From a virus (taxonomy: Duplodnaviria; Heunggongvirae; Uroviricota; Caudoviricetes): DNA of 39,189 nt. The DNA lies in IMG/VR virus record IMGVR_UViG_2703718862_000013. The stretch is one strand, 5' to 3'. The notes beneath the pieces are model-generated. The model saw only the letters and a list, made by a program, of their open reading frames with translations. It searched no databases and was not told where the DNA came from. Made by a program: the position numbers and the translations under genes. This document shows, piece by piece, positions 2,442 through 39,189 of this stretch (position 1 is its first letter; each line of letters starts with the position of its first letter).

Positions 2442-4523
2442 TCATTTATTCACATTAGACGGAGAGACCGCATCGTTAACCTGCACTTTAATTGTGTCAA
2501 ACAACATCGGGTAAGTGGCTGCATTGCCGGTAATATCGGTCAGTGTCAGTTGATCCACCGTGAACCCGGCATTCACCCACTTCACAAGTTCAAATGGTTC
2601 ACCATCTTTCCCGTCCAGAACTGGGGTAACACTCATGCTATTACCACCTGCAAACCGTAACGAGAGCGTATGCCATTCATGATCAAAGACACCATACGAT
2701 CCTATCTGTTGACTTCCGCTCCCTTTGTGATACATCACATTCAGGTTAGCTGAATCCGTTTGCAGGAAACATGATGCGATGAGGTTATTTTTTCCGTCAC
2801 CGTCAGGCCAGTTACTTACAGCCCAGTAAATACCAACACCATACCGGTTTTCCGCAATGCCCGCATCCGATGGAATTTTGAAACGGAGGGAAATATCACC
2901 ACCTCTGGCGAACAAATCCCTGGCATTATCAGCTGTGATCGGATGATACATTTTCCATGAGGCCATGCTGTTAGGCGCTTTATTCACCCTTAACGCTTTG
3001 TTACCACCTGTTGCAGCAGCATCCGTGACAAAGGTTGCTTTTCCGGAAGCCGCATTCCACCCCTGATCTTTCATTGGTTCTGTCGGGGCGTTTGCAGTAT
3101 ACGAAACGATGATCTTCATCTGATCGCTCACGTCCTTCACATCCCCGGTGGGTTCAGGCTCACTCTTACCGGTATCAGAATGTTCTGTTGCCGTTACACC
3201 GCGGAAGAAAGCAGATTTTTGTCCTGACAATGTCAGAATCGCTGTTGCCAGACGGTCTGAAATAATTCCACGGCGCGCCCATGAACTGAAATGGCTTGCC
3301 CTGTCGTTTGATGTCCAGTTAGTCGAATCGCGACTTATGGCACCATAATAGCCAATACCTGGAATATCCGGGTCTTCATCTGGATTATTTGTCGGTACAT
3401 TTTTTCCATTTTCATCCACAACAAATGGAACAAAGTGAATGTTCTTTGCTTCATTAGCATATTTGCCATAAACAGCTTTGTATTGTTCTGGATATGTATT
3501 TTTCCAGTAATACGTCGTATCACCACAGATCCACGGTACAGAAGCCATATCTCCGGCTGGAGATTGCGCAGAAAAAGCCGAAAGTTCACGCCTGAATGTT
3601 TCGACCATCGTCACAAACAGACCGGAATGTTCAGCATGTTTTCCTGTTTTCAGATCATTCTCGCCCTGCATCCAGACAACGGACAGGAGAATATTTCTGG
3701 GGTTACTGCTGAGAGCCGCTTTTGTTCGGTTAACAAGATCGCTGAACAAAGGTTTATTGACTCCCCAGCGCGATGATGCAGATGTTGCTCCGGAAGCTTC
3801 AGTAAATTCACCATCAGCACCATCGGTAAATGCAGAGCCTCCTCTGGCACAGGGAACCAGAAGGATACCAGCCTCTTCCGGGATAAAGGGCAGGAGTTTT
3901 TTTGCAATATGCAAACCCTGGCCGACACAACCATACTGACCTTTTGAAAGATCTGCTTTTGGATGATTATGGTTACTCATATCCAGCACATCATGAAGAC
4001 AGTGATCTGCCGGAATTATATCGTTGTAGGCGCATTCAACCCCGCCAGGTGTAACCGTGTTACGGCGAGCCAGCTGTTTAATACGTGGATCAGGTCGATC
4101 ATAGGTATCAGGCAAAGGAAGACCTTCACCAAATGACGATGCATTCGACTGACCAGCAATAACAACCACGTAATACCAGGACGGAGTTTGACCTGCAACT
4201 TTATCTCCTGCTGAGGAAGTGTATGTTTCCGCATTGTTCCAGTCTGACGGTTCAGTAGTACCGGCAACATCAGCACTTAACGGAATGACAGCACCAATAC
4301 CCGCTCCGGTAATTTCCACGTTCGGATCACCGGATACTGGCCTTACCCACAGGCAATCCCGTGTATTAAAACTGATGAGACAGTCAGCAAATGTCATACC
4401 TCCTTTCGTTTCAGCCGGAGGAAAGGGAGCCTCAAGAAATGCCGCTGTACCACCGGAAACTTTAACGGTAAAGTTTCCGGGCATTGATGATAGTTGAACC
4501 CATTTGGACGTCATAATATTCAT
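2442..4523 (-). CDS. nanS-p: NanS-p-like sialate 9-O-acetylesterase (SGNH/SASA domain) with N- and C-terminal extra domains
   Basis: VVVIAGQSNA...GEGLPLP, PRIKQLAR, LHIAKKLLPFIP, VPCARGGSAFT, WMQGENDL, CGDTTYYWK, EDPD..GYYG, ARRGIISDR match recalled NanS (YjhS) family; AGGA RBS. Confidence 0.75.
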   Translation of the reverse strand: MNIMTSKWVQLSSMPGNFTVKVSGGTAAFLEAPFPPAETKGGMTFADCLISFNTRDCLWVRPVSGDPNVEITGAGIGAVIPLSADVAGTTEPSDWNNAETYTSSAGDKVAGQTPSWYYVVVIAGQSNASSFGEGLPLPDTYDRPDPRIKQLARRNTVTPGGVECAYNDIIPADHCLHDVLDMSNHNHPKADLSKGQYGCVGQGLHIAKKLLPFIPEEAGILLVPCARGGSAFTDGADGEFTEASGATSASSRWGVNKPLFSDLVNRTKAALSSNPRNILLSVVWMQGENDLKTGKHAEHSGLFVTMVETFRRELSAFSAQSPAGDMASVPWICGDTTYYWKNTYPEQYKAVYGKYANEAKNIHFVPFVVDENGKNVPTNNPDEDPDIPGIGYYGAISRDSTNWTSNDRASHFSSWARRGIISDRLATAILTLSGQKSAFFRGVTATEHSDTGKSEPEPTGDVKDVSDQMKIIVSYTANAPTEPMKDQGWNAASGKATFVTDAAATGGNKALRVNKAPNSMASWKMYHPITADNARDLFARGGDISLRFKIPSDAGIAENRYGVGIYWAVSNWPDGDGKNNLIASCFLQTDSANLNVMYHKGSGSQQIGSYGVFDHEWHTLSLRFAGGNSMSVTPVLDGKDGEPFELVKWVNAGFTVDQLTLTDITGNAATYPMLFDTIKVQVNDAVSPSNVNK

Positions 4524-4613
4524 CCTGTTCCTGAATAAACAGAATTATCATATCCACAGACCGATAAACGCCATTTTGCGTTAATTCAGTAAAGGCCCAA
4601 CAAAGGGAGCGTC

Positions 4614-5174
4614 TTATTTTTCCAAAACGCTCGCAGGATAATAACGATAAAGGGTTGAAAGGCCGATATCAAAAATAAGTGCCACCTGTCTTCGGCTGAC
4701 CCCCCCGGCCAGTAAACGCCCGACCTGCTCGTATTGTTCCTGCGTGAGACGACGGGGTCTGCCGCCGGTTCGTCCCCTTTCACGGGCAGCTGTAAGACCA
4801 GCCCGTGTCCGTTCGACAATCAATTCACGCTCCATTTCTGCCAGCGCACCCATTATGTGAAAAAAGAAGCGCCCCATGGGGGTTGACGTATCAATGCTGT
4901 CAGTAAGACTACGAAAATTTATCCCCTGTTGCTGTAATTCATCTGTCAGCGCAACAAGGTGGCGCATACTGCGCCCCAGCCTGTCCAGTTTCCAGACCAT
5001 CAGCGTGTCACCGGGTTTTAGTTTCTTCAGTGCCCGCTTCAGTCCCGGCCGCTGCGTTGTTTTTCCGCTCATTTTATCTTCAAAAATCTGCTCACATCCT
5101 GCACATTCCAGCGCATTTCTTTGTAAACCTGTGTTCTGGTCATTTGTTGATACGCGTATATAGCCAATCAGCAT
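4614..5174 (-). CDS. gin: Site-specific DNA invertase, serine recombinase of Gin/Hin/Pin/Cin family
   Basis: MLIGYIRVSTNDQNT...GDTLMVWKLDRLGRSM...GRPRRLT is near-identical in pattern to recalled Mu Gin; adjacent to invertible segment. Confidence 0.95.
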   Translation of the reverse strand: MLIGYIRVSTNDQNTGLQRNALECAGCEQIFEDKMSGKTTQRPGLKRALKKLKPGDTLMVWKLDRLGRSMRHLVALTDELQQQGINFRSLTDSIDTSTPMGRFFFHIMGALAEMERELIVERTRAGLTAARERGRTGGRPRRLTQEQYEQVGRLLAGGVSRRQVALIFDIGLSTLYRYYPASVLEK

Positions 5175-5236
5175 GTATTTACCTTCCTTAAAAAGAGGTG
5201 GAAAGGCCTTTTAAAGCAGATATACGGCATCCCTGA

Positions 5237-5386
5237 AACCTCGGTTTACGGGAAACGGTAAATAAGGCGGCGAATGCCCTGCCATCGGACGGCACCGCTG
5301 CGGCAGCAAACAGACTCGCCACCCCAGTAAATATTAATGGTGTTCCTTTCGACGGGACGCGGGATATAAACATTACGTCAGGAATG
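5237..5386. repeat. Inverted repeat, left arm (duplicate of tail-fibre constant region)
   Basis: About 150 bp, ~92% identical to reverse complement of 6521-6671; same reading frame NLGLRETVNKAA..NRLATPVNINGVPFDGT.DINITSGM. Confidence 0.85.
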
Positions 5387-5608
5387 CCGGAATCAACGGC
5401 CAATCAGCGTTATGTTACAGGGGTAAGACTGGGAGCGCAGGCATTAAGCAGCGGACTGGAATATAATTACTCCCTGTCATCAGGAAATGTGATTACCGGT
5501 TTTAAGACTGACGGAGACTGGGAAATGCGTGGTGGTGATGACCGTGTTTATTACAGACAGATACAATATTGTATTAATGGGAATTGGGTATCCGCTGCAA
5601 GTATTTAA
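5237..5608 (+). CDS. Silent alternative tail-fibre C-terminal cassette (Sv'-like), no start or promoter in this orientation
   Basis: Frame continues from IR-encoded constant residues into a 73-aa alternative C-terminus related to, but diverged from, the current S C-terminus. Confidence 0.7.
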   Translation, partial: NLGLRETVNKAANALPSDGTAAAANRLATPVNINGVPFDGTRDINITSGMPESTANQRYVTGVRLGAQALSSGLEYNYSLSSGNVITGFKTDGDWEMRGGDDRVYYRQIQYCINGNWVSAASI

Positions 5609-5725
5609 TTAACGGCTCATGGCGTACGGCAGGCAGCGCCTGATATATGCGTTATCTCAGACAACCCCTGTCCGTATATAGCGATAGTATTATTCCTGTT
5701 TTTATCATTGATTCACATGGTGATG

Positions 5726-27735: not shown

Positions 27736-28066
27736 TCGTGGCCGCCTCACTGATTTGTGAAATGAGTTGCAGGGTGCGTTGCTGGTTTGCCAGCACCAGA
27801 CGGGCTTCGTCCCGTTCGCGCACAAGCACATGATTATTGTCCTCAAGGCGCTGCGTCTTCTGGTGCATTCCCCATACCACGGCAGCCAGCACGCTCATCA
27901 CCCCCAGCGCCGCCATACAGCCTCCGGCAATCAGGGCCGGTAAGGGATTATTCACCGCAGCCACAGCACACCCCGCAGCAGCACAACGGCACACAGCAGC
28001 GCAATCATGAGCGGTCGCCAGAAGCGGTTCAGACTTTCGGCAAATCGTAGCGACATAACCATTCAT
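27566..28066 (-). CDS. Inner-membrane spanin (i-spanin), start uncertain
   Basis: N-terminal TM segment followed by coiled-coil; directly after endolysin. Confidence 0.55.
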   Translation of the reverse strand: MNGYVATICRKSEPLLATAHDCAAVCRCAAAGCAVAAVNNPLPALIAGGCMAALGVMSVLAAVVWGMHQKTQRLEDNNHVLVRERDEARLVLANQQRTLQLISQISEAATNEKQQNIQHSEGQQSVVRRSLAAVPAASAPVPDDVADRVRRAVCEIRACEAGADPR

Positions 28067-28529
28067 CCGCCGAACGGCGGGCCTCAAGACCGGGGAGTTT
28101 CACCCCCTTCGAATAAATCCAGCGGATGTACTGCTTACAGGACGCGGGCATCTGCCCGGCATTGATCAGGCGCAGAAGCGTGGAGTTGCGGAAGTTCGTT
28201 TCACCAGCCCAGAAGATCCACGAAGCCAGCGCCACCGTCTGACCACGGGTAAGCGGCACCTGAACACGCCGATCAATGGCCGCAAAGGCCCATTTCATGT
28301 CCTTTTCCAGTAGTTCCAGGCATTCTTCATCCGTCAGGGTCATACCCGGTTTCACATCCGGGCCGGTATGGCCGTAACAGATGGTTGGTGTACCGGTGGG
28401 ATCGATATACGTGGAGTTTTCTTTCCCTTCCCAGTAACCGGTGTAATGCGTGGCAATCGTGAACGTCCCGGCACCGGCCAGAACAAGGGCAATCAGCTTT
28501 TTACGCAGTGGTGCGGGGAGTTTTGGCAT
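28029..28529 (-). CDS. lys: SAR endolysin (phage lysozyme)
   Basis: Hydrophobic N-terminus LIALVLAGAGTFTIA; YIDPTG..TICYGHTG and NFRNSTLLRLIN match recalled P21-type lysozyme. Confidence 0.85.
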   Translation of the reverse strand: MPKLPAPLRKKLIALVLAGAGTFTIATHYTGYWEGKENSTYIDPTGTPTICYGHTGPDVKPGMTLTDEECLELLEKDMKWAFAAIDRRVQVPLTRGQTVALASWIFWAGETNFRNSTLLRLINAGQMPASCKQYIRWIYSKGVKLPGLEARRSADEWLCRYDLPKV

Positions 28530-28600
28530 TGTTACGCTGTCTCATGATGTTCTCTGAGTCAGCGTAACGGTGAAGGAAAGGCGGCAGGCTTTGCGGAATA

Positions 28601-29023
28601 TCAGAAAAGTGGCGGTTGCGTTCTTGCCAGATGCAGACGGCGCTGTTCGCGTATGACGGTATAAATCTGGGTTTCTGACATCCTGTAATGGCGGCGCAGG
28701 GTTTCAATTTTTTCGCCCTGGCTCCAGCGGGAAAAAATCTCATTATTGCGCAGTTCGGTGAAAAGGGATTCACCGACCGGGAGATAATAACCACGCCCGC
28801 CCATGTACCCGGCCTGTGCGGCCGCAACTTTACGGGCAAGCATTCCTGCCTGAGCAGGTTCAATCCCCTGACGGTGCAGTTCAGCACTGATCACATCAAC
28901 CAGGTCCCGCAGCGTGCCGGGCCAGTTCTTTTTCAGCTCATCATCAGGAATGTCATCCAGACGGTCAATCAGCGCGTGCAGCTGTTCGCTGTCACCAAAC
29001 ATGCTCATCTGTGTTTCAGCCAT
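28601..29023 (-). CDS. Mor/C-family transcriptional activator
   Basis: C-terminal HTH region ...YYLP.G.SL...LRN.EIF..W.....I..L...Y..S...IY.VIR..RR...QPPLF resembles recalled Mu Mor; Mor versus C not distinguishable here. Confidence 0.75.
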   Translation of the reverse strand: MAETQMSMFGDSEQLHALIDRLDDIPDDELKKNWPGTLRDLVDVISAELHRQGIEPAQAGMLARKVAAAQAGYMGGRGYYLPVGESLFTELRNNEIFSRWSQGEKIETLRRHYRMSETQIYTVIREQRRLHLARTQPPLF

Positions 29024-29055: not shown

Positions 29056-29088
29056 TTTAAAATAAAAATCCCGCGCTGTGGCGGGATT
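29056..29088 (-). terminator. Intrinsic terminator hairpin, copy 1
   Basis: AAATCCCGC-GCTGTG-GCGGGATTT with U-tract on minus strand. Confidence 0.6.
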
Positions 29089-29363
29089 TAGAGGCGCTGT
29101 AAATCATAACCCGAAATGAGCTGTGTATTTATTGATCATTTTCCGGTGTAACTATATGATAAAGATCGTTTTTATTTTTAAAAATACAAACCCTGAAGGA
29201 GTTTTTCTTATCAAAAAGCTTGTGCATATTGCGGGTTATTGTTGTTTCATCAACATGAAAACCAATTATCCCAACTCTTAAAGCACACCAGGCTTGCTCC
29301 AGTGCAAAAACAAATAATTTCAGTCTGCCTGACAGCGTTCCACCGGAATAAAGGAAGATATCC

Positions 29364-29786
29364 ATGAAACAACCTCCATCTTTGCTTTTATCGTGCCCAC
29401 CAGAACTGGCCCATGAACTCAATGATCTGGCGAAAGAGTATAAACTTACAAATCATAATATAGAAGCAGCAACACTTAGTGCTGCCGGAAGCGATATTGT
29501 ATTGATCGTTCTGGCCGCAGCTTCATGCGATGGGTTCTGGCAGGCATTAGCCAGTATGTTTCAGACGTGGTTACATCGTAAACCAACAAAACAAACACCC
29601 CCGGAAAAGAAAGTTATTCGTAGCGTCATTGTTCGTAGCTGGGAACACTATCAGGAGACAACTAAACAAACTGAATTTTATAACTTTGATGCTGATGAGC
29701 TGGCTAAATTGATAGCGTTATATGAAAAACCAGATGAAACAATTGGTTGCATAATCCCGTCAGAAACGGAAATTCAGGAAAAATAA
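29364..29786 (+). CDS. Moron-encoded hypothetical protein (140 aa), opposite strand to surrounding operon
   Basis: Strong AAGGAAG Shine-Dalgarno; AT-rich island; stop abuts terminator hairpin. Confidence 0.5.
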   Translation: MKQPPSLLLSCPPELAHELNDLAKEYKLTNHNIEAATLSAAGSDIVLIVLAAASCDGFWQALASMFQTWLHRKPTKQTPPEKKVIRSVIVRSWEHYQETTKQTEFYNFDADELAKLIALYEKPDETIGCIIPSETEIQEK

Positions 29787-29809
29787 AATCCCGCACTGTG
29801 GCGGGATTT
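29776..29809 (-). terminator. Intrinsic terminator hairpin, copy 2 (immediately after gemA stop)
   Basis: AAATCCCGC-ACTGTG-GCGGGATTT with UUUUAUUUUU on minus strand. Confidence 0.6.
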
Positions 29810-29812
29810 GGG

Positions 29813-30322
29813 TTAACAGGGGAATGATTTTTCATACAGCCTGCAAACGCGCTCATAACTCATCACTGCACGCTCCGACATATCCAGGGCTGCCAGCATT
29901 TTGCGGCGGTGCCAGCGTTTGAGACGCTCCAGCACATCAGAGGCCAGCTCGGGGTGTTGCTCCAGCCACTGCCAGTTAGCCACACCTTCGCCGCCGTTCT
30001 GCGCGGCCGTCTGCGATTGCACCCAGCGGTTAAGGGCCGTTTCCGCACCATCAGAAATAAAGCCCTGCCGGTGCATCACTTTCCAGATGGCGCGAATTTT
30101 GGCGGTCACCGTACCCGGCTTTAAGGCCCGGTTAACCGGTTTCTGACGCACTTTAAAACCGCGTTTTTTGAAAACATCCAGTACGCGGGATAACTCATCC
30201 GGTGACATATCCCGGCAACTGGCTTTACCGGTGGCTGCCAGCAGTGCGGATGTATAGGTTTCATCATCCAGAGCAAGCTCGCGTTTTGCCACATGAATGG
30301 CAGATATCAGTTTTCCTCTCAT
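29813..30322 (-). CDS. gemA: GemA-like protein (Mu gp16 family)
   Basis: LISAIHVAKRELALDDETY..LL...TGK.SCRDMS..EL..VLD..KKRGFK matches recalled GemA family N-terminus. Confidence 0.7.
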   Translation of the reverse strand: MRGKLISAIHVAKRELALDDETYTSALLAATGKASCRDMSPDELSRVLDVFKKRGFKVRQKPVNRALKPGTVTAKIRAIWKVMHRQGFISDGAETALNRWVQSQTAAQNGGEGVANWQWLEQHPELASDVLERLKRWHRRKMLAALDMSERAVMSYERVCRLYEKSFPC

Positions 30323-30630
30323 ACCGTATTTACCTTTTTACGGACATGGAAAGCCTTTTCTGGCTCATTCCACCGGATATGATGCGTTGGCGGAATAATC
30401 ATTATGTGCCAGCCATCTCTGGTTGTTATTCGGCAGAAAAACTCACCGCTGTATAACACAATGGCCTGCTGAATAAGCGCATCCGCAGCCAGCTCAAGCA
30501 GATATCTTTTATCAAAAAGGCTGATAATTTTCCGGCATAACCACCGGGTGATAACAAATGCGCCGAAAAACGATGTGATATATAAACACCAGAACAGCAG
30601 AGAAATATTGTCCGTTATTTGCTCATCCAT
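30319..30630 (-). CDS. Hypothetical protein with N-terminal TM helix
   Basis: ORF in early operon. Confidence 0.4.
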   Translation of the reverse strand: MDEQITDNISLLFWCLYITSFFGAFVITRWLCRKIISLFDKRYLLELAADALIQQAIVLYSGEFFCRITTRDGWHIMIIPPTHHIRWNEPEKAFHVRKKVNTV

Positions 30631-30955
30631 TGTGTATCTCCCGTAATTCCGGTAAAGCCGAAATATGGCACCAGTGCGTCACCTGTCCATCCTCATCTTC
30701 AAGGCAGGCTCCGGTTTCTTCATCAACAAAAAAACCTTCATACCCGATATGGCCGATGCGCAGCTCCTGTCGGTGACCGTACTGAACAATCAGTACAACA
30801 GCCTCCATATCAGGCGGGAAAGCATCATTCAGTGAATGCCAGGGATAACCGCGCAAATCCCCGAAATAAACCCCGGTCAGGGTTCCGCCACAGACCGGCA
30901 TCCCGGCGGCACATACCAGAGGTTCGTCTGATTCAACAAATAAGGTCGTTATCAT
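30623..30955 (-). CDS. Hypothetical early protein
   Basis: ORF in operon. Confidence 0.4.
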   Translation of the reverse strand: MITTLFVESDEPLVCAAGMPVCGGTLTGVYFGDLRGYPWHSLNDAFPPDMEAVVLIVQYGHRQELRIGHIGYEGFFVDEETGACLEDEDGQVTHWCHISALPELREIHNG

Positions 30956-34590: not shown

Positions 34591-34845
34591 TCACTCCTCC
34601 CAGTAAACCGTGCAGCCGCTGATGCGGGTAGCCTTCACACGGCGGCGCAGGCCGTTGGTCTGTATGGTGATTTCAATTTCACCGGTTCCCTTAACTTCGC
34701 TTACCGGCGGCGTGGTTTTCAGGGCATAACGTTGTGGGTAGCGTTTGCTGCGTTCCAGTACCGCACCGGCAAGTTCAGTCAGACGGCGTGCACTGTTCAG
34801 GGAGTCGAATAAATTCATTTTTTTACCGCAGGATTGCATATTCAT
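34591..34845 (-). CDS. Hypothetical early protein
   Basis: ORF in operon. Confidence 0.4.
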   Translation of the reverse strand: MNMQSCGKKMNLFDSLNSARRLTELAGAVLERSKRYPQRYALKTTPPVSEVKGTGEIEITIQTNGLRRRVKATRISGCTVYWEE

Positions 34846-34857
34846 ATAACACCTCGT

Positions 34858-35085
34858 TTATCTGACTTGTTTTGCACCAACAGAACGGCATATTCCCCTG
34901 TAAACTTCTGTCGCACCTTCGCGATCAAGTCCGGCAGATATCACCATTCGTGTGCGGTCATTAAATTCAAAAAGTAAATCACCACATTCTTTATTTTCGG
35001 CCAGTGAAATCACCTTCACGTTATCGAAATTCACCAGGTAAAAGCGTCCGTAAATATCCGGAATATTAAATACCGCCATAATCAC
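34858..35085 (-). CDS. Hypothetical small protein at the position of Mu kil
   Basis: 75 aa, immediately after B; positional analogy only. Confidence 0.35.
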   Translation of the reverse strand: MIMAVFNIPDIYGRFYLVNFDNVKVISLAENKECGDLLFEFNDRTRMVISAGLDREGATEVYRGICRSVGAKQVR

Positions 35086-36023
35086 ACCTGTGAGAGTAAT
35101 TCAGGGTTGGTATAAACCTCTTTAAAGGCCGCATTAATATGTTTTTCTGTCAGCACAGCGCCTTCACCACTGGCGGTGATCCACGCCTGGTTAAGCGTAT
35201 GCGTCAGAACACGTAATGCTCCCGGTTTTTCAGCGATAGCCTGCATGACGGCCAGCTCGGCCTCACCACTGATCCCCCATGCCCTGGCAATGGCCAGCAC
35301 ATCCGCCTTTTTGGCCTTGCGAAGTTGTTTTGTACGGGCAAGACGGCTGAACAGGCGCGATAAATCATCAACGGCGCGGCGTCCACCTTTAAACAGTCCG
35401 CGCGGGTTACCAATAAGCACCATCCCGATCCCCGTGGCGTCCTGGATTGCCCTGAGTTGCTCCAGACCGTCAATACCAAGATGATCCGCCTCATCAACAA
35501 TCACCAGTCCACGCGTTCCCATCAGGCGACGGCGGATTGCGCGGGATAATGCCCCTTTGTTCGCGCGGGTGTAATCAATCCCCAGTTCCTCTGCCAGCTC
35601 CAGCAGACACTCCGTGACGCTGGAATGCGCAGGCGACAGGGTGATCATCCAGGTGTTCGGTTGCTCCTGACAGTAATTACGGGCTGTGGCCGTTTTACCC
35701 ACACCCGGTACGCCCACAATGACGTTAATACAGCCCATCAGGCGAACCGCCTGAAACAGTGCGCGCAGCTCCTGGACTGTCTGCGTTTCAACAAACTGCG
35801 GCGGCTCGGGCAGTGCGCTTTGTTTATTCCAGTTCTCATACCAGGAACGCAGGGAAGCAGCCACAGCAGCGTTATCGCCTTTATATTTCCCCTTACGGAA
35901 AGCCGATAATGTGCCGTCGGAAATTCCCGCCTCTCTGGCGATGGCATACTGCGTCAGTACGCCGCCATCAATAAGTTCATCAATGGTCTTGATTACATCG
36001 TTAATATCGGTCATATTATTCAC
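35082..36023 (-). CDS. B: MuB-like AAA+ ATPase (target DNA activator of transposition)
   Basis: Walker A GVPGVGKT; LPEPPQFVETQTV, LVIVDEADHLG, KKADV.AIA.AW match recalled MuB. Confidence 0.9.
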   Translation of the reverse strand: MNNMTDINDVIKTIDELIDGGVLTQYAIAREAGISDGTLSAFRKGKYKGDNAAVAASLRSWYENWNKQSALPEPPQFVETQTVQELRALFQAVRLMGCINVIVGVPGVGKTATARNYCQEQPNTWMITLSPAHSSVTECLLELAEELGIDYTRANKGALSRAIRRRLMGTRGLVIVDEADHLGIDGLEQLRAIQDATGIGMVLIGNPRGLFKGGRRAVDDLSRLFSRLARTKQLRKAKKADVLAIARAWGISGEAELAVMQAIAEKPGALRVLTHTLNQAWITASGEGAVLTEKHINAAFKEVYTNPELLSQV

Positions 36024-36063: not shown

Positions 36064-36098
36064 AACCTGAGTCACCCCTCGGGTTATTTTTTTTATTT
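36064..36098 (+). terminator. Terminator-like hairpin plus T-run on plus strand at the A/B junction
   Basis: AACCTGAG-tcacccc-CTCGGGTT followed by ATTTTTTTTATTT. Confidence 0.35.
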
Positions 36099-38188
36099 CA
36101 GGCCAGCGGATCATTTTCTTTTAATTTCGCTTCGAGCAGTTGCAAACCCCGCTGGAAATTACGCTCGTATTCTTCGTCAGGTTCATCGTCAGCGACTGGT
36201 TGCTGAACGGTCACCGTATTACCCACAGGGCGGTATATGTTTTCCAGCCATGGCTCCTGCGGCTTGTGCTCCAGCACGTTGACAACCTCATCCTCGGCAT
36301 CACGGATTTTTTCCTCTGCGCGTTTACGCATACCTTTAAGGCGCTGCTGCTGTTTGTAGTATTCCGCGCTGACAGGGAAGGCTTCGCGTTTATTGCCGTC
36401 CCATACCGCCTCGCAAATCACGCTGCCATCCGGGCGGCGTACGGTAATTCGTTCGGCATCATGAATGTCATAGCTGATAAGCACTTTGCGGCCATGTTCA
36501 TCACGCAGCTCGGGCGCGTAGTAAATATTATTCAGCCAGCGTATTTCACAGCGTCTTACAGGGCGTTCCACCATCGGCCGGAACATGTCCCGCAATTCCA
36601 CATCGGACAGCCATTCAATTTCCGTGTCCTCTTCCGCCAGGCGTTTTTTTCTGAACTCCGCCGGGCTGTAATGTTTACCGTTCGGCTTTATGGGTAATTC
36701 ATCGTGCGGCCGGTTGTTGTACCACTCAACGCCGTCACGAATGGCATCAATCAGTTCAGACCAGGACGGTAAATCACGCATCGCTGACTGCTGCCGGGCG
36801 TTCAGCCGCTTGCCCTGTTGCAGGGCACTGAATGCCGAGCGTAAATCGCGGTTGGTTTTACGTAACGTCTCGCGATCTGCACCTTTCCCGAAATAGGTGC
36901 GGTATTTACGGGCTATGCGCATCGGTAATGTGCGGTTAAGCCGTTCGATAATGCCCCGTCCCTGCGGATTACCGGCAATCCCGGTCGGGTGATTAATCCC
37001 CAGTCGCGGTAGTATCCCCACAACCTCCTTATCCAGGATGTCGGCCGTTTCCCCCGAGCCATTATCCGAGTAATACAGAAACGGTTTGCCGTGATGGCGA
37101 ATGCCGTGCTGTATGGCACCGGCTACGGCGAAAACATTTTCAGCCAGGTCAAGGCTCCAGCCCACCACAAAGCGCGTGCCACCGTCGATAACAAAGGTCA
37201 CTTCCGGTGCAAATGGTCGCCCGTGAACCGGGTGCGCACATTTCAGCTTCATGCCGTGACCGTCACCAATCCAGACATAATTCACCGGCATTCTGGACCA
37301 GTCGCGGCGCGTGAATCCCTCAAGCTGGCGGTATTCACTGCCGGTCACCCGGCCTTTTTGTTTCACCACTTCCGGCAGTTTCTTCATCGCGCGGCGAATG
37401 GTGTCATAAGAGGGCATGATATCGAGCATATAAGGCTCATCAGCGTGCCGGTGCTGCCATTCGGCGACAAAATCCTCGTAAGCCTCGGTCATTGGTCGGC
37501 CGTTTGACTGGCGATACTGCGCCAGAAACTCGGGCAACCAGCTAATATCTTCGGCTTTTATTTCCTGACGTTTACCCGGTGCCAGTAAAAGTAGGCGTTC
37601 AGCGGCGTTCTGCGCCTTGTTAAAGGCCGCAATCCAGCGTTTCAGCGTGATTTCACTCAACGCGCGGCTGTTTCCCTTTTTGGCGTTCGCCGTTTCAACC
37701 ATTGCCACAATGCGTTCGTCCAGTTGCGAGCGTGACAGACGGTCAACAATAAACCGGATAGCTTTAGCGCAGCTGAAACCGGGTTGTTGCGCGAATTTAA
37801 GCACCTCGCTGACAATCGCAATTCGTGCATCGGCCACCTGGCGCTGTTTTTCAGTCAGTGCATTGATACGTTCGACCATCAGTTGGGGTGATCCGCGATA
37901 TGCCTCCACCGCATCAACCACGGCAGGTGAGCGTCTGGCCTTTGTCACCACCGGAACCGGTGACTCATCGGCTTTTTGCGCCATCAGTTGCAGGGCGTAG
38001 CGTTCACGTAATGCCTGCTGCGTCACTTCAGGTAAACAGTCGATGCTGTATTCAGTTGCTTTAGATCCTGAGCGACGACGGGAACAACAGCTTTTCCCTT
38101 GTGCGTAACGTTGTAATGCCTGGCGAATACCTTTTGTAGTTGCAGGCATTCCGGGCGCACCAATCAGTTCTTTTGCAATGAAATACAT
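36098..38188 (-). CDS. A: MuA-like DDE transposase
   Basis: 696 aa; WIGDGHG and SDNGSGE catalytic-core-like motifs; N-terminal DNA-binding domain; between ner and B. Confidence 0.9.
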   Translation of the reverse strand: MYFIAKELIGAPGMPATTKGIRQALQRYAQGKSCCSRRRSGSKATEYSIDCLPEVTQQALRERYALQLMAQKADESPVPVVTKARRSPAVVDAVEAYRGSPQLMVERINALTEKQRQVADARIAIVSEVLKFAQQPGFSCAKAIRFIVDRLSRSQLDERIVAMVETANAKKGNSRALSEITLKRWIAAFNKAQNAAERLLLLAPGKRQEIKAEDISWLPEFLAQYRQSNGRPMTEAYEDFVAEWQHRHADEPYMLDIMPSYDTIRRAMKKLPEVVKQKGRVTGSEYRQLEGFTRRDWSRMPVNYVWIGDGHGMKLKCAHPVHGRPFAPEVTFVIDGGTRFVVGWSLDLAENVFAVAGAIQHGIRHHGKPFLYYSDNGSGETADILDKEVVGILPRLGINHPTGIAGNPQGRGIIERLNRTLPMRIARKYRTYFGKGADRETLRKTNRDLRSAFSALQQGKRLNARQQSAMRDLPSWSELIDAIRDGVEWYNNRPHDELPIKPNGKHYSPAEFRKKRLAEEDTEIEWLSDVELRDMFRPMVERPVRRCEIRWLNNIYYAPELRDEHGRKVLISYDIHDAERITVRRPDGSVICEAVWDGNKREAFPVSAEYYKQQQRLKGMRKRAEEKIRDAEDEVVNVLEHKPQEPWLENIYRPVGNTVTVQQPVADDEPDEEYERNFQRGLQLLEAKLKENDPLA

Positions 38189-38189
38189 A

Positions 38190-38438
38190 TCATGACGCCT
38201 TTCTCATATAGCTCTTAACCTGGTATCTGCTGGGCCAGATTTCTTCAGGTGACACACCAAGAGCATCAGCAATTATTTGTTGATATGGGCGGCAAGGGGT
38301 GCGTAATACGCTTTTCAGCGAATCCCTGCTGTAACCAGCCTTTAAAGATAAAGAGCGCAGTGATAAGCCAGCCATGTGCAGGCGCGCCTTGATGATTTCT
38401 GGCGGCCAATCGTGATCTGAAACTTCTCTTCTACTCAT
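38190..38438 (-). CDS. ner: Ner-like DNA-binding regulator
   Basis: ...IIADALGVSPEEIWPSRYQ matches recalled Mu Ner C-terminus; GAGGAA RBS. Confidence 0.8.
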   Translation of the reverse strand: MSRREVSDHDWPPEIIKARLHMAGLSLRSLSLKAGYSRDSLKSVLRTPCRPYQQIIADALGVSPEEIWPSRYQVKSYMRKAS

Positions 38439-38604
38439 ACTTCCTCTATTCTAAAAAGTTACCCGCACGGATATTCGGACGGATATCTGTACGGGTAAAC
38501 GATAGAACAAGAAAAGAACCAAATCAAGGTATTTTATTCTTTTTGTTCTTTATATTGTTTTCATCAATAAAATCAATTAGATAAGCGCGAAGGAACCTAA
38601 AGGC
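38439..38604. promoter_or_regulatory. Divergent early/repressor promoter-operator region
   Basis: Imperfect ~17-bp inverted repeat GTTACCCGCACGGATAT / ATATCTGTACGGGTAAA (38458-38499) containing direct repeats CGGATAT; AT-rich. Confidence 0.55.
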
Positions 38605-39189
38605 ATGAACATGAAAAAAAGTTCTTTTCTTGACGAAGGAAAAGAACCAGTAATCGAGCGAATATTTCGCCTTGCAGAGCGTTACAAATCGAGAAGTGAG
38701 GCGGCTAGGGCCTGGGGAATCAATATTCAGACATTGCAGAACTATTACAAAAGGAGAAACAATCAGCCACCACCACAGCCAAGAAAGCACCATCTCCAGA
38801 ACATTGCTGAAAAAGAACATGTATCAATGGAGTGGCTAATCTATGGTTATAATAATGAGTCAATCACAAAAAAAGAACTATTAGAACAAATAGAAAGAAC
38901 AAAAAAACAAGATGTAAATGATGGTGACTCCATCATCATGAGGGCGTGGGACTCGCTAACTTCATCTGAACAAGAGATTTTGTCCAATTTATTGATCAGA
39001 AAAGGGGCCGAGTTACTAACCATTTTACTTGATACTGATATTCAAAAGCTGCACTCATTGAGTGGGGTCAAAAGAGCATTGGCATTGAGTCTGCAAGAGT
39101 TACCCGATGATACTGTAAGAGAGATTTATGAAGAATGTGAGGCTAAGGTTAATCATTTAAATGTAACCCAGAAAAAGGCCGGTGCGTAA
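38605..39189 (+). CDS. Prophage repressor (c-position), HTH DNA-binding protein
   Basis: Divergent from ner; HTH-like SRSEAARAWGINIQTLQNYYKRR; AAGGAAC RBS; stop is last codon of window. Confidence 0.65.
   Translation: MNMKKSSFLDEGKEPVIERIFRLAERYKSRSEAARAWGINIQTLQNYYKRRNNQPPPQPRKHHLQNIAEKEHVSMEWLIYGYNNESITKKELLEQIERTKKQDVNDGDSIIMRAWDSLTSSEQEILSNLLIRKGAELLTILLDTDIQKLHSLSGVKRALALSLQELPDDTVREIYEECEAKVNHLNVTQKKAGA

Follow-up and report, generated by a model that had tools for sequence, protein, structure and literature searches.

The window, by which we mean the whole stretch of 39,189 nucleotides that was analysed, corresponds to a complete E. coli prophage of the Mu-like type, encoded on the minus strand. 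Between two of its regulatory genes, gemA and the gene of a Mor/C-family transcription activator, there is an AT-rich insert of approximately 720 bases. The features to which the text refers are, in order of position:

28029-28529: lysozyme gene
28601-29023, minus strand: gene of a 140-aa Mor/C-family transcription activator (Pfam PF08765, E 1e-30)
29059-29089: left, mor-proximal repeat copy, an A-tract followed by the hairpin AAATCCCGC-GCTGTG-GCGGGATTT at 29066-29089
29129-29365, minus strand: second cassette gene, encoding a basic protein of 78 aa (pI 8.7, hydrophobic core), WP_024192020.1 (PGAP)
29130-29170, plus strand: conserved promoter-like block of 41 nt, with -35 TTGATC at 29132-29137 and -10 TATGAT at 29155-29160
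29364-29786, plus strand: gene of a 140-aa acidic orphan protein (ATG start, pI 5.2)
29779-29809: right, gemA-proximal repeat copy, with the hairpin AAATCCCGC-ACTGTG-GCGGGATTT at 29786-29809
29813-30322, minus strand: gemA (gp16 family; Pfam PF06252, E 1.3e-29)
35082-36023: MuB gene of the Mu-like prophage
36098-38188: MuA gene of the Mu-like prophage

The GemA protein of the window shares 46% identity with Mu GemA, and its gene is the final one ahead of the hairpin on the phage early strand. The activator gene is nearer to Mu C (40% identity by tblastn, E 1e-32) than to Mu Mor (28%, E 1e-13). Searching the window by tblastn with Mu C and Mu Mor gave no other credible match that could represent a second Mor-family gene; a weak match at 34771-34977 was rejected, as it spans different ORFs. 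The activator gene lies directly downstream of the cassette and is followed after 71 nt, a gap without a terminator, by the lysozyme gene.

The GC content of the island (29090-29785) is 39.2%, with 36.5% in the leader and 40.9% in the 140-aa ORF, as compared to 54.7% in gemA, 54.1% in the Mor-family gene and 53.2% in the entire window. Equally AT-rich windows of 696 nt make up 0.5% of the total, and the remaining ones all lie at the repressor end (38250-39150). The AT-rich island that the preliminary description had placed between gemA and the activator therefore stands out clearly against flanks of ~54-55% GC.

The same description had reported a duplicated hairpin-terminator on both sides of the island, and two copies of a 31-nt repeat, 90% identical to each other, are indeed found there. 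Exactly two matches to the 24-nt hairpin pattern exist in the window, versus zero expected from shuffled sequence. Both copies score positively as minus-strand terminators, having 9-pair stems of -13.4 and -13.2 kcal/mol followed by the U-tracts UUUUUAUUUU and UUUUAUUUUU. On that strand the left copy reads as a terminator placed 42 nt before the ATG of the activator gene, and the right copy ends gemA. The right copy also adjoins the 3' end of the plus-strand 140-aa gene, whose TAA stop falls in the A-tract of the hairpin; read on the plus strand, it has a weak U-tract (UUUGGGUU), and the scan called no terminator there.

We surveyed 5426 complete E. coli genomes, 231 of which carry this gemA-mor backbone. 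The window's cassette was present in 4 of the 231 (99.9-100% identity), and two others, related mouse isolates, had a different insert at the same site; the remaining records listed all lack ~717-720 nt of the island. Strains that carry this prophage include STEC2018-607, CP55_Sichuan, STEC1587 and JNEC-KY203. In nearly all relatives the gemA-mor spacer measures 68-70 nt and contains a single hairpin, versus 789 nt in the window; one empty relative examined closely has 69 nt between the two genes and one hairpin copy. Empty sites with a single hairpin were also found in several dozen IMG/VR contigs, some of which combine the window's own mor allele with the loop variant seen in its mor-proximal copy. 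The loop type of the left copy is that of empty-site relatives with the same mor allele. Aligning the gemA-mor interval with Mu-like relatives, the check proposed in the preliminary description, thus returned one hairpin and no insert, which agrees with its view of the island as an opposite-strand AT-rich moron inserted within a duplicated terminator.

The hairpin itself belongs to the phage backbone. Its stem, AAATCCCGC/GCGGGATTT, remains constant even where GemA identity between phages is only 51-65%, in contrast to a variable loop and flanking spacer. As judged from these alignments, the terminator of the cassette is not foreign but a duplicate of the phage's own early-operon hairpin. A terminator ahead of the activator gene is not specific to the island but forms part of the conserved backbone in every relative examined.

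In the Mu GenBank record AF083977, a predicted early terminator is likewise embedded in the Mor-dependent middle promoter Pm, and in both phages the early operon terminates at a hairpin that immediately precedes the next regulatory gene. Mu differs in having both Mor and C, with gemA and mor adjacent, whereas the phage of the window has one C-like activator and a different hairpin sequence. Promoters of the Pm type have a dyad element about 43.5 nt ahead of the start site, a weak -35 and a dependence on a Mor/C-family activator; Mor binds a dyad centred at -43.5 (PMC4287176). The centre of the dyad lies 27.5 nt upstream of a CCTGTG motif in the window and 28 nt upstream of it in Mu Pm, and this similar spacing suggests that the mor-proximal copy may double as a putative activator site. 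Against this idea, CCTGTG is absent from the other mor allele (the L003 type), the copy is decayed at some loci, and the lone Mor-family protein is C-like.

The junction between gemA and mor is occupied repeatedly. Mu-like prophages of E. coli and Salmonella hold at least four unrelated cargo types at the same place, listed here with the loci that carry them:

Cargo A: 140-aa protein and a small ORF; the window, L001, L034/L039, L037
Cargo B and B': 111-113-aa protein and a small ORF; L002, L004/L065, L035, L036, L079
Cargo C: 143-aa protein with a signal peptide; L017, L022, L024
Cargo D: 106-aa protein with a signal peptide; L008, L076, L080

Each of the types A-D has ~41% GC, is oriented against the phage operon, and is bounded by a complete hairpin beside gemA and a complete or decayed copy beside mor. 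The gemA-proximal copy is intact at every occupied locus; the mor-proximal one is decayed in L035, L036, L017 and L022. In the Salmonella-type lineage the slot is filled in 6 of 8 IMG/VR loci.

A wider scan of the slot, taking one genome per species, extended this picture. Citrobacter braakii has an empty slot with an identical hairpin. In an Enterobacteriaceae MAG (L118), the slot holds a cargo C homologue (43% identity) that runs with the operon and has a hairpin of identical stem behind it. A prophage of Photobacterium contains an unassigned gene of 109 aa, and a Mu-like prophage of Grimontia marina (L122) carries RnlA-RnlB, rnlAB being an established anti-phage toxin-antitoxin system (PMC8266594, PMC5308261). 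These comparisons identify the terminator hairpin between gemA and the lone Mor/C-type activator gene as a recurrent cargo slot of enterobacterial Mu-like prophages. The island of the window is, on the same evidence, an accessory cassette in that slot, a moron in the sense of a promoter-gene-terminator unit located between genes that are adjacent in related phages (definition quoted in PMC4378225). The slot does not imply a single function, because cargo C and D are secreted single proteins.

One rival reading places the selected effect of the cassette in cis, on the phage itself. The opposing promoter and the doubled terminator would then form an insulator that limits early read-through into the C-type activator and the lysis genes, tightening lysogeny or delaying late expression, with the encoded proteins being secondary. 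The orientation of cargo A-D against the operon in E. coli and Salmonella phages, the constant integrity of the gemA-proximal hairpin, and the position of the activator, directly downstream and only 71 terminator-free nt from the lysozyme gene, are all consistent with such a role. However, a single hairpin without a cassette suffices in ~97% of E. coli relatives, several lineages show decay of the mor-proximal copy, L118, L122 and L124 carry cargo that runs with the operon, and both ORFs of the cassette are under purifying selection as proteins (see below). We consider the insulator very unlikely as the main role of the cassette.

The preliminary description had counted a single ORF in the island, on the plus strand; we found a second conserved ORF at 29129-29365, on the minus strand and thus in the direction of the phage operon, located within the leader of the 140-aa gene. 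PGAP calls this small gene in one genome and omits it in another. Its frame is open from the same start position in five of five cassette versions (A, B and B') and across three deeply diverged lineages, while it stays open in only 0.2% of shuffles. Between L035 and L036, the two Salmonella-type cassettes compared, the small gene shows 29 differences, distributed 7/3/19 over the codon positions (p = 4e-4), with dN 0.06, dS 0.81 and a dN/dS of 0.07. The small proteins comprise 63-78 aa with a pI of 8.7-10.7 and a maximum Kyte-Doolittle value (19 residues) of 1.5-1.9; Arg, Lys or Glu residues occur inside their hydrophobic segment, which scores at the borderline of a membrane helix. The protein occurs on 352 E. 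coli/Shigella contigs under the name 'hypothetical'.

The starts of the two genes are interlocked. In the window, their ATGs overlap in the palindrome CATG, and among the cassette versions the starts either overlap (CATG) or abut (CATATG). The Shine-Dalgarno sequence of the small gene, GGAGG (29377-29373, minus strand), lies within codons 4-5 of the 140-aa gene, and that of the 140-aa gene, AGGAAG (29352-29357, 6 nt before the ATG), lies within codons 4-5 of the small gene. The G-rich motif for the small gene is provided by the codon of Pro5, an invariant residue of the large protein.

A leaner account of this arrangement is a single-gene lysogenic-conversion moron, in which the 140-aa protein alone matters and the conservation of the small ORF is a by-product of constraint on the leader. 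It fits the classical promoter-gene-terminator layout, the one-gene composition of cargo C and of cargo D, the small ORF for which no promoter was found, and the coincidence of the small protein's conserved N-terminus, M-[D/N]-I-x-L-Y, with the ribosome-binding region of the large gene. Constraint on an RNA leader would not, however, place 19 of 29 differences at third positions or give the dN/dS of 0.07 over the full length, both of which indicate selection at the level of the protein; nor does it account for a frame kept open in three deeply diverged lineages, with its own GGAGG at the correct spacing. We regard the single-gene account as decidedly unlikely, and on these substitution patterns the small ORF is the second real protein-coding gene of the cassette.

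The plus-strand ORF at 29364-29786 and its ribosome-binding site are both present as the preliminary description had placed them. The large proteins of the A, B and B' cassettes are all acidic (pI 4.8-5.7), and the comparison of L035 with L036 gave a dN/dS of 0.155 for the large ORF, with a third-position bias of p = 1e-4. The transmembrane segment that had been proposed for the 140-aa protein did not hold up: the maximum Kyte-Doolittle value (19 residues) is 1.85 in the window versus 1.09-1.39 in the homologous cassette, and, the hydrophobic stretch not being conserved in the B family, a membrane protein is improbable. Sequence comparison did not relate the 140-aa protein to the 113-aa protein of cargo B (hhalign probability 1.8%, with only a W..W..R helix aligned); we infer their common origin from context. 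A pairing of the leader (29241-29250) with the start region (29364-29373) was also considered and set aside, a 10-nt complement being about what chance is estimated to give in 1 kb.

The exact 140-aa sequence was found on 524 E. coli and Shigella contigs, all annotated 'hypothetical'. Some natural variants lack 25 aa in frame, and on 27 contigs the protein is frameshifted to a form of 86 aa, the latter indicating that the full-length protein is dispensable for host viability. Such variants, together with the rarity of the cassette (4 of 5426 complete E. coli genomes), would suit a neutral hitchhiker, a decaying remnant with no current function. This is highly improbable given the purifying selection that acts on the two ORFs as well as on the promoter block described below, the 524 and 352 contigs that carry the two proteins, and the persistence of the module across backbones whose GemA proteins share only 65-88% identity. 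Throughout E. coli genomes, GenBank phages, plasmids and protein searches, the module was seen at the gemA-mor site only, and no source of the cassette outside Mu-like prophages was found in the E. coli genomes, GenBank phages or plasmids.

Among the non-coding parts of the cassette, the promoter-like block at 29130-29170 is the most conserved. The otherwise divergent cassettes A, B and B' share TATTGATC-N18-ATGATAA, which spans the -35 and -10 hexamers, while the leader around the block diverges among them. Between L035 and L036 the 41 nt of the block show no difference, and the non-coding left arm shows 5 differences in 88 nt, as opposed to 40-49% of synonymous sites (p = 2e-13 for the arm). 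Coding does not explain this conservation, because the small gene of B and B' stops short of the block. The block is nearly palindromic, matching its own reverse complement with 3 mismatches, it contains GATC sites at 29134-29137 and 29164-29167, and it does not recur elsewhere in the prophage.

A sigma70-like TTGATC-17-TATGAT had been noticed here before, and the motif is present, although its coordinates were one base off (29132-29160). It matches the consensus at 9 of 12 positions, and the region has 3 promoter-like sites versus 2.7 ± 1.5 in shuffles, so that the consensus match alone is no more than chance would give; what supports a putative promoter is the conservation of the block across cassettes. 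A transcript from the predicted promoter would have a leader of ~200 nt, antisense to the whole small gene, continue into the 140-aa ORF and extend to the gemA-proximal hairpin.

These features lead us to favour, with a probability of roughly 55%, a reading of the cassette as an autonomously transcribed, lysogen-expressed two-protein moron module, possibly under mutual antisense control and probably engaged in phage-host conflict. In the lysogen, host RNA polymerase would read the plus strand and produce the 140-aa protein, and this transcription would silence the small gene through antisense pairing or transcriptional interference. The small gene would most likely be read only when early transcription after induction passes the gemA terminator, a route suggested by the finding that no conserved minus-strand promoter precedes it in the cassettes compared. 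The charges of the two products are complementary, the small protein being basic and the large one acidic, and the two would form a protein pair and act together. The function probably lies in phage-host or phage-phage conflict, toxin-antitoxin-like or by exclusion, a proposal that derives from the other occupants of the slot and not from features of these proteins. For the putative exclusion, defence or anti-defence role raised in the preliminary description, indirect support comes only from RnlA-RnlB, which fills this slot in another Mu-like prophage.

A more elaborate scheme, which we hold to be quite unlikely, makes the cassette a prophage-state switch of two mutually antisense genes, with the palindromic terminator as a handle for cassette exchange. 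Host polymerase would supply the acidic protein in the lysogen; once early phage transcription passed the gemA terminator, the small basic protein would be produced in its place, with a role in conflict or addiction that is linked to induction or to the arrival of a related superinfecting phage. The two palindrome copies are direct and inverted repeats at once, so recombination between them could delete, invert or exchange the cargo; the empty sites, the variety of cargo types and the occurrence of one cargo in either orientation would thereby be explained. Inversion at the palindrome is one idea that would be compatible with the reversed cargo C homologue of L118.

The favoured two-protein module has no counterpart in the databases searched. 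A word-indexed search of 5.8 billion proteins returned the cassette's own variants only, and an exhaustive search of 1.84 billion representatives gave the same result apart from one spurious match, a eukaryotic mucin with SEA-domain repeats (phmmer, E 1.2e-6), in which seven near-identical repeats sum up small scores. The cassette proteins had no matches in Pfam, PHROG, NCBIfam and the PDB or among GenBank phages and plasmids, neither protein of cassette A, B or B' matched PADLOC-DB 2.0 at E <= 1, and no Rfam family exceeded its threshold in the cassette. Profile searches of the PDB with both protein families found nothing. Two AlphaFold runs were poor (pLDDT 51.5 and 45.1), and Foldseek against the PDB with the better model (pLDDT 51.5) gave no significant match, the best E-value being 1.3; the weak top matches, ACT/RAM-like beta-alpha-beta-beta-alpha-beta domains, were disregarded. 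In the low-confidence model, the hydrophobic stretch of the 140-aa protein forms a strand and a helix of a soluble alpha/beta domain. The 140-aa protein, which the preliminary description did not recognise, is equally without a significant match by Foldseek and PDB profiles, and across these searches both cassette proteins are orphans.

The properties of the pair also invite a reading as a toxin-antitoxin or abortive infection system, which we consider possible but unlikely. The small basic hydrophobic protein would be the toxin, freed on infection or induction and otherwise held by the antisense leader (type I-like), by the acidic 140-aa protein (type II-like), or by both. The small protein's size of 63-78 aa, its pI of 8.7-10.7 and its hydrophobic core (Kyte-Doolittle 1.5-1.9) agree with this, as do the strong purifying selection on its gene, the complete overlap of that gene by the leader of the opposite gene, the acidic nature of the partner and the presence of a bona fide pair, RnlA-RnlB, in the same slot elsewhere. 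On the other hand, no toxin, antitoxin or PADLOC model was matched, and the divergent layout is atypical of type II, which is recognised by a co-directional operon with a toxin or antitoxin domain; the cassette genes are divergent and free of Pfam, NCBIfam and PADLOC domains. The charged residues (Arg, Lys or Glu) in the hydrophobic segment and its borderline membrane-helix score also speak against a toxin of this kind, and an essential protein antitoxin is hard to square with the truncation on 27 contigs, except with a silent small gene or an N-terminal half that is enough by itself.

The ways in which phages gain and swap accessory genes remain poorly understood. At the present site the junctions can be read directly: a terminator hairpin of invariant sequence is duplicated at a defined regulatory boundary, and empty, occupied, decayed and inverted states of the slot can all be observed in public genomes. 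As the slot holds a proven anti-phage system in one phage, the orphan module becomes a candidate for a new small conflict module. It is carried on several hundred E. coli/Shigella contigs, STEC isolates included, and its interlocked translation starts represent a directly testable regulatory design. Its interest would rise considerably if either-or expression or a defence phenotype proved true.

Several known systems resemble the cassette in part. In an excludon, one of two divergent genes has an mRNA whose long 5' leader runs antisense across its neighbour, leading to either-or expression; the arrangement was reportedly first described in Listeria. The interlocked starts and the predicted promoter, which is placed past the 3' end of the small gene and would give an antisense leader, would produce a similar geometry, whereas the present pair is tiny, forms part of a prophage cassette, and has an overlap deduced from the predicted promoter only. 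Type I toxin-antitoxin systems of prophages consist of a small hydrophobic toxin and an antisense RNA. The cassette likewise has, within a prophage, a small basic protein with a hydrophobic core under a predicted antisense transcript; unlike in type I systems, the putative antisense RNA is the leader of a coding mRNA, and the small protein is longer (63-78 aa) and borderline in its hydrophobicity. RnlA-RnlB of the Grimontia marina prophage is a low-GC two-gene insert in the same gemA-mor slot, but has no homology to the cassette, and its genes are co-directional, lie on the strand of the phage operon and encode much larger proteins.

Also comparable are the Mu-like phages of Pseudomonas, in which regions of genomic plasticity have no recognisable junction sequences (PMC4378225), and phage Fc02, in which olg1 and gene 10 are overlapping exclusion genes: opposite-strand overlapping genes are expressed there in different states of the phage, and two of them exclude superinfecting phages (PMC9936078). 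Common to all of these are a transposable phage and small low-GC accessory ORFs at fixed positions. The Pseudomonas regions lack recognisable flanks, whereas the cassette of the window has duplicated hairpin junctions. Fc02 infects another genus, carries its genes in the repressor-ner region and shares no sequence similarity with the cassette; exclusion was measured in Fc02, while the cassette is known from its sequence.

The nearest class is that of the morons. Like these, the cassette is an insert between genes that neighbour each other in relatives with empty sites, has a deviant base composition (among the lowest 0.5% of windows), carries a promoter-like site, has a terminator of its own, a hairpin directly after the stop codon of the 140-aa gene, and runs against the operon. 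Unlike usual morons, which have a single coding region, it contains two conserved ORFs on opposite strands, arranged head-to-head with overlapping starts, and its terminator duplicates the phage's own early-operon hairpin. The cassette is a genuine and well-delimited moron, with a content richer than first described.

The slot between gemA and mor, the gene of the C-like Mor-family activator, carries further cargo in related Mu-like prophages, as two loci show:
L122 (Mu-like prophage of Grimontia marina) 4203-5622, operon strand: complete RnlA-RnlB toxin-antitoxin pair, between gemA and mor
L118 (Enterobacteriaceae MAG) 4070-4462, operon orientation: homologue of the secreted protein of cargo type C, 43% identical to the Salmonella version

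The RnlA-RnlB insert has a GC content of 38-40%, as against 46-52% for its flanks. The L118 homologue lies in operon orientation, so that cargo C occurs in either orientation, depending on the phage. It is followed by a AAATCCCGC-TGATTT-GCGGGATTTTTTTT hairpin at about 4480-4510, directly ahead of mor.

Comparison of the cassette left ends revealed a short motif common to cargo types A (the type of the window), C and D, located just inside the mor-proximal hairpin copy:
Window 29108-29128: left end with the motif CCGAAATG
Left junctions of loci L022 and L008: the same motif

In types A and C the motif is followed by CTGTGTA, and type C additionally carries a collapsed form, TTATTAATCAGGATGATAAATCA, of the promoter-like block of types A and B. 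Since the motif recurs in A, C and D and the collapsed block in C, the left ends hint at an ancestral left arm shared by the cassettes, within which the cargo would have been swapped. Two Dam sites (GATC) frame the promoter-like block of the window: the first (29134-29137), inside the -35 hexamer, is common to all cassettes of types A, B and B', and the second (29164-29167), starting 3 nt past the -10 hexamer, is limited to A and B'. Within the gene of the 140-aa cassette protein, two TKQT-coding direct repeats (window 29586-29672) bracket 25 codons, and a natural variant, P0002 (115 aa), lacks exactly this segment; in another variant, P0013 (86 aa; n = 27 contigs), the original sequence stops after residue 80 owing to a frameshift.

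The hairpin stem AAATCCCGC/GCGGGATTT was invariant in both window copies (29066-29089 and 29786-29809) and in the related loci L003, L011, L117 and L118, although GemA identity among these phages ranges from 51 to 100%. Compensatory substitutions in the stem were not seen among these copies. The loop and the adjoining spacer varied among the same phages. This is a sequence constraint exceeding the needs of a mere terminator, and the stem may be a protein-binding dyad.

Outside the slot, a second opposite-strand, low-GC gene lies immediately upstream of gemA in two prophages:
L036 (Salmonella-type prophage) 4945-5355, plus strand
L117 (Citrobacter braakii) 3013-3468, minus strand

Both genes gave weak DUF2513 matches (E = 2e-4 and 8e-4), and their presence suggests a further accessory slot on the opposite side of gemA. 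Just ahead of gemA, the window (30319-30955, where GC drops to 41-47%) and the common E. coli relative L003 (2603-3411) carry sets of small early genes that are unlike in both number and sequence; this stretch is another variable part of the early region.

The AT-richness of the island is matched by only one other region of the window, 38250-39189 (38-40% GC), which contains:
Within 38250-39189: early-operon control region
Within 38250-39189, plus strand: ORF of 194 aa, located where Mu has its repressor

A Pfam search gave no match for this ORF.

At the other side of mor, the spacer between the single C-like activator gene and the lysozyme gene is only 71 nt long (28530-28600), and no terminator-like hairpin was found in it. 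In Mu, the C-lys interval contains a terminator as well as the late promoter Plys. In the phage of the window, co-transcription of the activator gene with the lysis genes is possible.
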